Shown here: one piece after another, positions 56,918 to 59,229 of the stretch
Numbering within the stretch: position 1 is the first letter of the stretch
How the letters are laid out: every line of letters begins with the position of its first letter
Source: Nitrospirota bacterium
GTDB lineage: Bacteria; Nitrospirota; Thermodesulfovibrionia; Thermodesulfovibrionales; UBA6898
Reading direction: 5' to 3'
DNA: 64,000 nucleotides
Assembly: GCA_012026685.1 (NCBI GenBank)
Contig: VEOY01000089.1
Location: forward strand, 13,983 to 77,982
The notes under the pieces: generated by a model
What the model was told of the DNA's origin: nothing
The model's input: only the letters and a program-made list of their open reading frames with translations
Database searches by the model: none
Translations under genes and position numbers: made by a program

Positions 56918-56994
56918 TGGTGCCCCCTGCATGATTCGAACATGCGGCCCCAGGTTTAGGAAACCTGTGCTCTATCCTACTGAGCTAAGGGGGC
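56918..56994 (-). tRNA. tRNA-Arg (anticodon CCT), CCA encoded
   Basis: The reverse complement folds as GCCCCCT TA GCTC AGTAGGATA GAGC A CAGGT TTCCTAA ACCTG GGGCC GCATG TTCGAAT CATGC AGGGGGC A CCA (77 nt). Confidence 0.9.
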
Positions 56995-57033: not shown

Positions 57034-57486
57034 CTATAACAGCTCAAAAACCTTATCAACAGCTTCTTTTGCATCCTTCGCAGGGACGATCCCCCGGATT
57101 TCCCATGTGCCGATGCCAACCACCGGTTTGTTCATCTGGAGACCGAATGCTATCTCGGACAGAGTTCCGTACCCACCGCCAACTGCGATAAAGGCGTCTG
57201 CTGTGCGGGCTATGATAACATTTCTCCCGATACCCAGTCCAGTTGCGATCGGGACGTCTATATAGGAGTTTGCATCTTTCGTATGGTCCTGCGGCAGAAT
57301 GCCGACCGTTATGCCGCCTGCATTTTTGGCACCTCTTGATGCTGACTCCATGATACCATGCAGACCCCCACAGACGAGCAGACCACCGTTCCGGGCTATC
57401 AATCGCCCGACCTCTTCAGCCTCTTTTTTAAGTGCCCGGTCAGCCCTGCGGCCACCGATCACGGCAATCAGGGGCGGCCGGTTCAT
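57034..57486 (-). CDS. TIGR00725-like / LOG-family Rossmann-fold protein
   Basis: IAVIGG...LVCGGLHGIMESASRGA...GILP...ATGLGIGRN...IAVGGGYGTLSEIA pattern. Confidence 0.75.
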   Translation of the reverse strand: MNRPPLIAVIGGRRADRALKKEAEEVGRLIARNGGLLVCGGLHGIMESASRGAKNAGGITVGILPQDHTKDANSYIDVPIATGLGIGRNVIIARTADAFIAVGGGYGTLSEIAFGLQMNKPVVGIGTWEIRGIVPAKDAKEAVDKVFELL

Positions 57487-57743
57487 TGTTGAGCTGTTAT
57501 TTCCGGGGGTGCAACGGTCACCATCTTCACCCAGGCGATCTCAGACTTTACCCTCTCCTGTATGGACCTGACCAGGTCCATTCGTGTCATGTGTCAACGC
57601 CAGCAGTAGCCGGTCGGCCGAATGCGAACATCCTGCTCTTTTATGTCAACGAATTCAATGTCTCCTCCAAGATTGGTGAACCGGGGCTTCAGATCATTGA
57701 TGATCTGCTTGATTTTCTCGATATCTTCTTCTATATTTCCCAT
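57483..57743 (-). CDS. NifU-domain protein with in-frame UGA (57594..57596) at the second Cys of CxxC: candidate selenoprotein, not in the ORF track
   Basis: Hand translation: MGNIEEDIEKIKQIINDLKPRFTNLGGDIEFVDIKEQDVRIRPTGYCWR-[TGA]-HMTRMDLVRSIQERVKSEIAWVKMVTVAPPEITAQQ*. AAGGAG lies 5 nt before the ATG. The terminal TGA overlaps the next gene's ATG (ATGA). It matches the NifU C-terminal pattern ..IRP.L..GGD.E.VD....V.V...G.C..C..s..T....I... Confidence 0.7.
57562..57581 (-). promoter_or_regulatory. SECIS-like hairpin AUGGACCU-GGUC-AGGUCCAU starting 12 nt after the in-frame UGA
   Basis: 8-bp perfect stem with a GGUC apical loop. Its position and loop resemble the E. coli fdhF SECIS (loop with essential G and U). 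Confidence 0.55.
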
Positions 57744-57796
57744 GTAACTCCTTCATCCTGAAAAATTGACAATAATTTTAGCAGATTGGAGAATGT

Positions 57797-58300
57797 TTGG
57801 ACATCATTGATATCATAAGAACACGCCGCAGTGTCCGGAAGTTCACGGAGGAGGCGGTATCTGACGAGGTTGTGGATGCGATTCTTGAGGCAGGGAGATG
57901 GGCGCCGTCAGGGCAGAACAATCAACCCTGGCGATTTGCTGTAGTCAGGGACAGGGAGATCATCACTGAAATATCTAAACTGACGCATTACGGCAGGATA
58001 GTCCTTGGTGCTCAGGTGCTTATTCCGGTCTTTCTCGATACAGCAAGGATCTATCACAGGGAGAAGGACATACAGGGCGTGGGTGCATGCCTGCAGAACA
58101 TGCTGCTGGAGATCCATTGTCTGGGCCTGGGTGGGGTGTGGCTCGGTGAGATCATTAAGAGCAATATCCAGATGAAGAGCGTGCTCGGCCTTGCTGACGA
58201 TCTGGAGCTTATGGCTGTTATCGCGCTTGGATGGCCTGCGGAGAATCCGCGTATAACGAAACGCAGATCGTTGGATGAATTGACCGTCTATCGGGATTAA
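57797..58300 (+). CDS. nitroreductase family protein
   Basis: DIIRTRRSVRKF opening and SGQNNQPWRF. TTG start with a GGAG 8 nt upstream. Confidence 0.8.
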   Translation: MDIIDIIRTRRSVRKFTEEAVSDEVVDAILEAGRWAPSGQNNQPWRFAVVRDREIITEISKLTHYGRIVLGAQVLIPVFLDTARIYHREKDIQGVGACLQNMLLEIHCLGLGGVWLGEIIKSNIQMKSVLGLADDLELMAVIALGWPAENPRITKRRSLDELTVYRD

Positions 58301-59229
58301 TTCCTGGCGGCCGCAGTCTTAGGAATATATGCTCTTCCCTGCGTAGCGTTCCTCTTCTCGAGGTTCTTCTCAATATCATTCAGAATGCGGTGTCTGTTCT
58401 TGCCCCACTCCGGGGCGATGAGGATATCATCGGGCGCTGTTGCGAAAAGCCGCTGAAAAACAATATGCGGGGATGTTTGTTCGAGGAAATCGACTACGAA
58501 GTCCAGGTATTCATCGTATCCGAAAACCGGGAACGGGCTTTCCCGATATATCAGGGCAAGCGGGGTATCCTTTATAATCTGGAGCTGGTGCATTTTAAGG
58601 AAATCTATGGGGAGATGTGACAATTCACCTGCCATGGCAAGCGTTTCGCTGCGGGTCTCCGTGGGAAATCCTGCGATCAGGTGGGCTCCGATATGGATGC
58701 CCCTGCCCTTTGTCATATCCACTGCGCGGAGAAAGGTGCTGTAGTCGTGTCCGCGCTGTATGAACTCGAGACTCTTGTCATGCATCGATTGAAGCCCATA
58801 TTCGACCAGTATGAAATATTTCGATGCAAGAGATTCAAGGAGCTCTATCTTTGGCAGGTCTACTGCGTCCGGACGTGTGCCGATCGCAAGGCCTATAACG
58901 TCAGGCGCTGCGAGTGCTTCCCTGTACAGCTTTTCGAGTTCATCGACAGGGGCATAGGTATTGGTGTATGCCTGAAAATAGACCAGGAACTTGGCAGCCT
59001 TGAAGCGTTTTGTTGTGTGGGCAATACCGTTACGAACCTGCCCGGAAACGGACAGAGAAGGTTTACAGGAGGTCGGCCTGAAACTGTCATTGTTGCAGTA
59101 GATACAACCTGAGAACCCGAGAGTGCCGTCGCGGTTCGGGCAGGTGAAGCCGGCATCCACATTCACTTTGTAGACCGTGGTGCCGAATGTCTTTCGCATA
59201 TATGCGCCGAAGGAATTGTAACGCTGCAT
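58297..59229 (-). CDS. TIGR01212-like radical SAM protein (YhcC family)
   Basis: FTCPNRDGTLGFSGCIYCN cluster region. 310 aa. Confidence 0.75.
   Translation of the reverse strand: MQRYNSFGAYMRKTFGTTVYKVNVDAGFTCPNRDGTLGFSGCIYCNNDSFRPTSCKPSLSVSGQVRNGIAHTTKRFKAAKFLVYFQAYTNTYAPVDELEKLYREALAAPDVIGLAIGTRPDAVDLPKIELLESLASKYFILVEYGLQSMHDKSLEFIQRGHDYSTFLRAVDMTKGRGIHIGAHLIAGFPTETRSETLAMAGELSHLPIDFLKMHQLQIIKDTPLALIYRESPFPVFGYDEYLDFVVDFLEQTSPHIVFQRLFATAPDDILIAPEWGKNRHRILNDIEKNLEKRNATQGRAYIPKTAAARN

Follow-up and report, generated by a model that had tools for sequence, protein, structure and literature searches.

A conserved Nfu-type gene family of Nitrospirota with a probable selenocysteine at the second cluster-ligand position

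Nfu-type proteins hold a [4Fe-4S] cluster on a dimer-bridging C-x-x-C pair and deliver it to radical S-adenosylmethionine (SAM) enzymes such as LipA and MiaB. The nearest precedent for the gene described here is the HesB-like selenoprotein, which a 2026 inventory of prokaryotic selenoproteins lists as experimentally verified (PMC13188914); the accompanying review treats C-x-x-U, in which U denotes selenocysteine (Sec), as a redox-type motif (PMC13188914). The gene in question, referred to below as Sec-NifU, is an Nfu-type reading frame that runs through a TGA codon at the position of the second ligand cysteine. It lies on the minus strand at 57483..57743 of a 64,000-nucleotide stretch of a Nitrospirota contig (VEOY01000089.1, assembly GCA_012026685.1), which is called the window throughout.

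Judged from sequence, the gene in the window is with high confidence a genuine selenoprotein gene, whose product of 86 residues would consist of a stand-alone Nfu-type domain with Sec, inserted by standard recoding, as its second cluster-ligand position. Together with its relatives, it very probably represents a real, conserved and previously uncatalogued selenoprotein family using the same standard recoding. Table 1 of the 2026 inventory, which covers 119 prokaryotic selenoprotein families and subfamilies, holds no NifU, Nfu or PF01106 entry (PMC13188914); no dedicated NCBIfam model for Sec-NifU was matched, and a literature search returned no prior description pairing NifU with selenoprotein families. 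At NCBI, members are labelled as hypothetical proteins or NifU family proteins of 48-49 amino acids (aa), and the 49-aa fragment from the window itself is deposited as NJD56049.1, a hypothetical protein.

The interrupted gene and its NifU domain

The gene opens with an ATG at 57743..57741, preceded across a 4-nt spacer by the Shine-Dalgarno sequence AAGGAG (57748..57753, minus strand). Forty-nine sense codons lead to an in-frame UGA at 57594..57596, the putative Sec codon 50 of C47-W-R-U50, and 36 further sense codons lead to a terminal TGA at 57485..57483. The predicted product is MGNIEEDIEKIKQIINDLKPRFTNLGGDIEFVDIKEQDVRIRPTGYCWR-U-HMTRMDLVRSIQERVKSEIAWVKMVTVAPPEITAQQ, 86 residues in length. 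Its terminal TGA shares the letters ATGA with the ATG (57486..57484) of the following SLOG/TIGR00725 gene. Within the intergenic 310 bp (57487..57796), conventional open reading frame (ORF) prediction finds nothing beyond two ORFs below threshold, 49 and 35 aa long. This layout had been proposed in an earlier reading of the same DNA made without database searches (the sequence-only reading), which described the ribosome-binding site and ATG, the runs of 49 and 36 sense codons on either side of a TGA, the ATGA overlap and the 310-bp gap devoid of listed ORFs; all of these were recovered when the sequence was read again. Elsewhere in the window TGA behaves as an ordinary stop, terminating 24 of the 57 long ORFs, and a reassigned genetic code is thereby ruled out.

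Both halves of the interrupted frame belong to a single domain, as the sequence-only reading had supposed. With Cys written at the TGA, the read-through product covers positions 1-66 of the 67 in the Pfam NifU profile (PF01106), with 52 bits (cutoff 27) and E=7.9e-14, thus exceeding the gathering threshold across the whole domain; the 49-aa N-terminal half by itself covers positions 1-38. The criteria for NfuA (TIGR03341 / NF008392) and for NifU proper (TIGR02000) lie far above what the product scores (15.6-40.4 bits against cutoffs of 268-273), and of these larger proteins only the C-terminal Nfu module is present in Sec-NifU.

The placement of the TGA within the domain is equally specific. 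In phmmer searches against the PDB, the segment ...TGYCWR[TGA]HMTRM... aligned to ...QGACGSCPSSTM... of plant and bacterial Nfu structures, and the TGA column coincided with the second Cys of G-A-C-G-S-C in 2z51, 2jnv and 1xhj. The same Cys column was found against a Cys-type paralogue (L001) and against protein P0116. The claim that the TGA replaces the second Cys of the ligand motif, for which this alignment had been set in advance as a check, is thus upheld. Across the family, the first Cys of the C-x-x-C ligand motif (C47) is invariant and the second position is a UGA codon, which would give C-x-x-U if recoded; the family motif can be written as G-[YF]-C-[WYH]-R-U-H-x-T-R.

An ordinary Cys-type Nfu of 73 aa (…TGACGSCPMSTMTL…) is encoded 6.5 kb from the Sec form in the same genome at two related loci (L001:16718-16939 and L002:7344-7565, both minus strand). 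Because the two forms coexist in one genome, the Sec gene there is an extra paralogue and not a replacement. No Cys-type Nfu paralogue was detected within the 64-kb window.

Conservation of the frame and of the hairpin

Evidence from relatives carries most of the weight. In total, 36 related loci were retrieved: 27 from the same clade and a further nine (5 + 4) from five more distant lineages. All 36 carry TGA at the same codon and keep the downstream frame. In the 27 clade loci the TGA is followed by H-[MVY]-T-R-[MI]-D-L-V...W-V-K-M-V, and the nine distant loci again show the TGA, the frame and a hairpin. The His directly after the TGA is invariant and in frame, and the downstream frame ends at, or overlaps, the start of the next gene. 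Among 20 distinct sequences of the Thermodesulfovibrionales-type clade, codons preceding the TGA have a ratio of nonsynonymous to synonymous substitution (dN/dS) of 0.075 and those following it one of 0.133, the synonymous divergence (dS) being ~0.9-1.6. The low downstream value indicates that the 3' part is translated in this frame and is under purifying selection. The sequence-only reading had named in advance, as grounds for abandoning recoding, relatives that share the TGA and have lost the frame; what was found instead is retention of the frame at every locus, with a downstream dN/dS of 0.13.

Protein databases give the same picture. Among 5.8 billion proteins searched, 43 relatives came up, 36 of which are exactly 49 aa long; five others are extended at the N-terminus yet stop at the identical ...C-W-R, and the last two stem from frameshifted calls. 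The latter, P0037 (93 aa) and P0043 (70 aa), were considered as Cys forms and rejected as frameshifted calls of the same TGA gene. In an exhaustive phmmer search of the 49-aa piece against 1.84 billion representative proteins, relatives at 35-58% identity were nearly all short and ended at the same position. A profile built from ten read-through sequences matched 112 proteins, ~105 of them clusters truncated at the UGA residue, and the only full-length matches, six in number, proved to be ordinary Nfu proteins with G-A-C-x-G-C-P at 31-40% identity. No Cys-form orthologue was detected among the 112 matches, and no TGC or TGT variant occurred in the ~105 clusters. The family appears to exist only in the Sec form and, as far as sampled, is confined to Nitrospirota and Thermodesulfovibrionales-like anaerobes. 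Two further matches were set aside. One, at L016 (GTDB representative UBA6905), aligns over residues 49-79 only and is uninformative: NN stands at L016:10000-10012 in place of the central part of the gene with its TGA, an assembly or masking artefact in which ~150 nt are lost. The other, L029, shows 29% identity and lacks the motif.

Downstream of the TGA lies a hairpin of the type of a bacterial selenocysteine insertion sequence (bSECIS), AUGGACCU-GGUC-AGGUCCAU, at 57562..57581 on the minus strand. The perfect 8-bp stem and GGUC loop, 12 nt after the TGA, had already been noted in the sequence-only reading and were found at 57581..57562. With the U of UGA as nucleotide 1, the loop occupies nucleotides 24-27. 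The bSECIS model of the 2026 review asks for a loop of 3-9 nt, a stem of 4-16 bp, a G in the first two loop positions, a spacing of 16-37 nt and a minimum free energy of at most -7.5 kcal/mol (PMC13188914); the hairpin in the window has a 4-nt loop, an 8-bp stem, GG, 20 nt of spacing and -11.7 kcal/mol. Perfect 8-bp hairpins number ~13 per strand in the 64 kb, against 7 +/- 3 in Markov simulations, and at that density one lying 12 nt past a given TGA is a ~1e-3 event. Taken alone, the hairpin is weak evidence, and the decisive support is comparative.

This comparative support has three parts. First, the loop codons are frozen within the clade: Leu is CTG in 19 of 19 distinct sequences and Val is GTC in 19 of 19, while other Val, Leu and Arg codons vary freely. 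Normalised synonymous entropy is 0.18 in hairpin codons versus 0.62 elsewhere (Mann-Whitney P=0.007, or P=0.004 for codons with at least three synonyms). Second, the stems differ by lineage yet stay paired (GGACCU/AGGUCC, UGGCCU/AGGCCA, AGCCCU/AGGGCU, GGGCCUC/GAGGCCC and GGCCCUG/CGGGGCC), while the peptide over the hairpin varies (MDLVRS, MDLVQV, IGLVEA, MALVRG, VALVRG, IALVEG and VGLVEA), the stem remaining at registers i+j = 51 or 52 and the loop keeping its G/GU signature in every lineage. Over eight lineages, 91% of cells are paired and 10 cells are changed on both sides; three of the seven pairs carry such double changes, pair 20-32, for example, occurring as C-G, G-C and A-U. Paired fraction, number of double changes and covariation score all stayed below the observed values in each of 500 shuffles, and slid registers were at most 61% paired. 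Third, when hairpin energies were compared with synonymous recodings, the four most distant lineages tested gave P=0.02-0.045 each, and Fisher's method over six lineages gave P=4e-4.

The two residues encoded by the loop, Leu57 and Val58 (window 57570-57575), are invariant in the whole Sec family and are not conserved in Cys-type Nfu (T-M-K-M-G in 2z51). As their codons form the loop of the SECIS, this protein-level invariance may be imposed by the RNA.

Selenocysteine decoding and competing explanations

If the recoding is standard, a ribosome arriving at the UGA of codon 50 would encounter, 12 nt further 3', a hairpin whose GGUC loop is rich in G. If it acts like its counterpart in E. coli fdhF, this loop would recruit SelB-GTP-Sec-tRNASec, Sec would be inserted, and the remaining 36 codons would be translated up to the stop that overlaps the next gene's start.

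Several results weigh against this account. Measured in the window, the hairpin energy is ordinary relative to dinucleotide shuffles of a 61-nt region (z=0.26) and unexceptional against 2,000 synonymous recodings of the window peptide (P=0.12). One internal mismatch interrupts the stem in ~8 of 22 distinct sequences, namely those of the R-A-I subclade and L020, and these mismatched stems fold locally at ~-5 to -7 kcal/mol, at or below the strength set by the model threshold of -7.5. Rfam was searched across the window at its gathering threshold and across 57400-57800 at E<=10; two tRNAs and chance matches were all that emerged, with no matching bacterial SECIS model. The decoding machinery was likewise absent from the DNA at hand: ARAGORN found no tRNA-Sec in the window and nine loci, and tblastn with E. 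coli SelA, SelB and SelD gave no match in the window and 295 kb of related DNA. Since no sel genes occur in the window or in those 295 kb of related loci, the Sec capacity of this genome is inferred and not shown. Nor does the window contain a convincing second selenoprotein gene; a noisy initial set of 94 in-frame-TGA candidates fell to two after filtering, both with extensions that look non-coding.

Other carriers of the family offer evidence of Sec use. Three Nitrospirota contigs with a family member (L038-L040) carry other genes with an active-site TGA within 8 kb of NifU. One is a Tat-signal formate dehydrogenase alpha subunit (FdhA) on the minus strand, ~5 kb away (L038:14827-17898, L039:14803-17874 and L040:13038-16109). 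Its one in-frame TGA falls at codon 187, within the canonical context ...HQARI-U-HSATVAALAESFGRGAMTNHW (ARI-U-HSATV). Gene calling splits the gene into 186 + 820 aa in the JGI contig L038, while the NCBI-derived L039 and L040 each list one product of 1,023 aa; the gene served as an internal positive control for Sec decoding. A second gene, also on the minus strand (L038:13133, L039:13109, L040:11508), encodes a DsbA-like / Thioredoxin_4 protein with U-x-x-C in …VEFLDYQ-TGA-PHCRG…; it is called as two fragments or left uncalled, and probably belongs to the DsbA-like selenoproteins, a known family. In the third, which lies on the plus strand (L038:18416, L039:18392, L040:16627) and encodes a rhodanese domain, the TGA occupies the catalytic-loop position (…PTVVY-TGA-ASGSRS…); only a fragment of 52-74 aa is called, and the product is probably a selenoprotein of the rhodanese type. 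These three genes indicate that the genomes of L038-L040 decode Sec. Complete selA, selB, selC and selD have been reported in Thermodesulfovibrio (Mukai et al., 2016; PMC5389517), and in Nitrospirae selC is described as embedded in or overlapping selB (PMC13188914).

The main residual rival accepts the UGA and the hairpin and changes the residue: Cys would be inserted, at least partly, by a tRNASec-like tRNA-Cys (selC*), so that the product would be an ordinary C-x-x-C Nfu. Genes for selC* tRNA-Cys are indeed present in Thermodesulfovibrio and in contigs probably from Nitrospirae, and the form with a UCA anticodon can translate Sec-UGA as Cys (Mukai et al., 2016; PMC5389517). However, only some selC* tRNAs have that anticodon, and it was in Deltaproteobacteria, not Nitrospirae, that their dedicated SelB*/CysRS* partners were described (PMC5389517). 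If Cys served equally well, TGC or TGT variants would be expected, and the ~105 clusters contain none; the window and the nine loci scanned for tRNAs yielded no selC* gene. We consider this explanation improbable.

A second possibility is read-through that needs no SECIS, in which a near-cognate tRNA-Trp or another tRNA suppresses a leaky UGA-C and the hairpin merely slows the ribosome. In bacteria, UGA is known to be leaky when a C follows, and the modest energy of the hairpin would fit such a role. Trp at a conserved metal-ligand Cys position would, however, destroy the motif, and every lineage retains in its loop the G/GU signature of SelB-binding SECIS elements. Moreover, carrier genomes hold a canonical Sec-FdhA and two further active-site-TGA candidates. 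Suppression of this kind is therefore very improbable.

Still harder to sustain is the view that the TGA is a true stop and that a 49-aa N-terminal fragment and a separately initiated C-terminal fragment of 30-35 aa form a split NifU domain. An ATG two codons past the TGA does give a 35-aa ORF in the window, and gene callers sometimes predict a small second ORF, such as L008 241-330. The second codon past the TGA nevertheless varies by lineage (ATG, GTG, GTC, GTA, TAT, ATT, TCC, TTC and GGC), leaving no conserved start, and the 3' end of the first ORF has no Shine-Dalgarno sequence; initiation further downstream would not require the invariant in-frame His after the TGA. Finally, a pseudogene or relic, created by nonsense mutation of a former Cys codon and retaining residual downstream similarity, would agree with public annotation as a 49-aa hypothetical protein or NifU-family fragment, but it is effectively refuted by the identical TGA at 36 of 36 loci across a dS of ~0.9-1.6, by the downstream dN/dS and the conserved, covarying hairpin, and by the failure to find an intact Cys-form orthologue from which decay could have started. 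The preference of the sequence-only reading for recoding over a pseudogene is accordingly supported by the Cys column, the shared TGA and frame, the selection downstream and the covariation taken together.

Neighbourhood, possible role and known systems

Within the clade, the gene order is mnmL/ytqA, an inverted nitroreductase, Sec-NifU, SLOG/TIGR00725 and tRNA-Arg(CCU). Downstream of Sec-NifU in the window, the SLOG cluster-4 / TIGR00725 gene occupies 57034..57486 on the minus strand (PF18306 E=8e-44; TIGR00725 125.5 bits). The overlap of its ATG with the stop of NifU makes translational coupling to Sec-NifU probable, and the NifU-SLOG arrangement recurs in L001, L003, L006, L008-L010 and others. 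The tRNA-Arg(CCU) directly after it (window 56918-56994, minus strand) lies 3' of the SLOG gene in every tRNA-scanned clade relative (L001, L003, L006, L010 and L012-L016). On the other side, a divergent nitroreductase-family gene (57797..58300, plus strand; PF00881 E=2e-27) is conserved as a neighbour in the Thermodesulfovibrionales-type clade only, and beyond it at 58297..59229 (minus strand) lies the gene for MnmL/YtqA, a radical SAM tRNA-modification enzyme (TIGR01212, 308.9 bits versus a cutoff of 180).

A few further features lie inside and near Sec-NifU. NifU codons 9-13 (GAG AAA ATC AAG CAG; window 57705-57719) show no synonymous change in 19 of 19 distinct sequences. Just 3' of them, in the region of NifU codons 9-18, is a 7-bp palindrome, CAGATCA-TTGA-TGATCTG (window 57690-57707). 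The codon 9-13 stretch is also overlapped by a sigma-70-like site on the plus strand (57709-57737, 9/12 matches), which could be the promoter of the divergent nitroreductase gene. In the lineage with proS upstream, a conserved ORF of 75 aa without Pfam or NCBIfam match (L030:551-778, L033:661-888 and L037:10355-10582) lies ~165-175 nt 3' of the called Sec-NifU 5' fragment, that is, ~55-75 nt past the true stop.

The link to mnmL recurs outside the clade. At five loci from three other lineages (L031, L034 and L038-L040), Sec-NifU lies 6-16 nt 3' of mnmL on the same strand, with TIGR01212 scores of ~300 bits. In E. coli, nm5s2U is made anaerobically by YhcC/MnmL, a [4Fe-4S] radical SAM enzyme that is sensitive to O2 (bioRxiv 10.64898/2026.05.18.725915). 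Sec-NifU may act as a homodimeric Fe-S cluster carrier with mixed Cys/Sec ligands or, alternatively, as a redox partner that forms a C-x-x-U selenenylsulfide; in several lineages it could serve the adjacent O2-sensitive MnmL/YtqA. One of these two roles, often in the service of MnmL, is probable, at a level of certainty considerably below that of the selenoprotein claim. Function is deduced here only from domain homology and gene neighbourhood, and some observations weigh against it. In one lineage (L030, L033 and L037) proS, not mnmL, lies upstream, and in the window the inverted nitroreductase separates mnmL from Sec-NifU. Furthermore, Sec-NifU has an invariant His where Nfu canonically carries Pro, directly after the second ligand position, and the flanks of the motif are unusual (W/Y/H and R). 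The invariant R49, H51, T53 and R54, together with the loss of Pro, suggest a modified chemistry that may differ from cluster carriage.

A bolder proposal would make Sec-NifU an obligate Sec subfamily of Nfu with no Cys form anywhere, a dedicated maturation or repair partner of MnmL/YtqA in which Sec is a direct Fe-S(e) ligand. We regard this combination as speculative and rather unlikely. If true, the Nfu class would gain its first Fe-S carrier with a Sec ligand. On a still more speculative view, the protein could tie selenium handling to the xnm5s2U wobble-uridine pathway, whose product is the substrate for 2-selenouridine formation.

Short of that proposal, the family would add to the prokaryotic selenoproteome a member missed both by screens for Cys/Sec pairs and by NCBI annotation, every member being now deposited as a 46-57-aa fragment. 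The hairpin and the motif G-[YF]-C-[WYH]-R-U-H-x-T-R together offer a simple signature for correcting the annotation of metagenome-assembled genomes of Nitrospirota. With a selenolate ligand, such an Nfu carrier would amount to a natural experiment on the ways in which the nucleophilicity and pKa of a ligand tune cluster binding and transfer. Its recurrent placement beside mnmL points to a concrete client enzyme.

Sec-NifU can be compared with several described systems. The closest counterpart of its RNA element is the SECIS of E. coli fdhF, a resemblance in geometry and loop that the sequence-only reading had pointed out and that stands up in sequence and fold. Both elements lie inside the coding region directly 3' of the UGA, both follow UGA-CAC (Sec-His), and both present a GGUC tetraloop, at nucleotides 22-25 in fdhF and 24-27 in the window, a shift of 2 nt. 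The stems share no sequence similarity, that of Sec-NifU being a perfect 8-bp helix, whereas that of fdhF has a bulged U and an extended lower helix.

At the protein level, Sec-NifU resembles Cys-type single-domain Nfu (PF01106; Arabidopsis CnfU 2z51, S. epidermidis 1xhj and the 73-aa L001 paralogue) in its full-length domain, its small stand-alone size and the shared register G-G-D...G-x-C-x-x-[C/U]. The Sec family differs in that the second ligand is encoded by UGA (Sec) and G-A-C-x-x-C-P-x-[SA] of the Cys type becomes G-[YF]-C-[WYH]-R-U-H-x-T-R; identity between the two is merely 26-40%, and the Sec subfamily contains no Cys orthologue. The HesB-like selenoprotein (an IscA/A-type carrier, TIGR01911, motif U-x-G-P), which the sequence-only reading had named as a precedent and which is indeed in the 2026 inventory (PMC13188914), likewise is an Fe-S-biogenesis domain with a ligand Cys changed to Sec, and it occurs in Sec-rich anaerobes. 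Its fold and family are nonetheless unrelated, its motif is another one, and Sec-NifU gives no TIGR01911 match; moreover, the HesB-like protein is catalogued and Sec-NifU is not. Redox selenoproteins of the C-x-x-U type listed in the same table (SelW-like, AhpD-like, GrdA, HdrA and others) have the same spacing between Cys and Sec. These, however, adopt thioredoxin-like or other folds, whereas Sec-NifU bears its motif at the cluster-ligand position of the Nfu fold.

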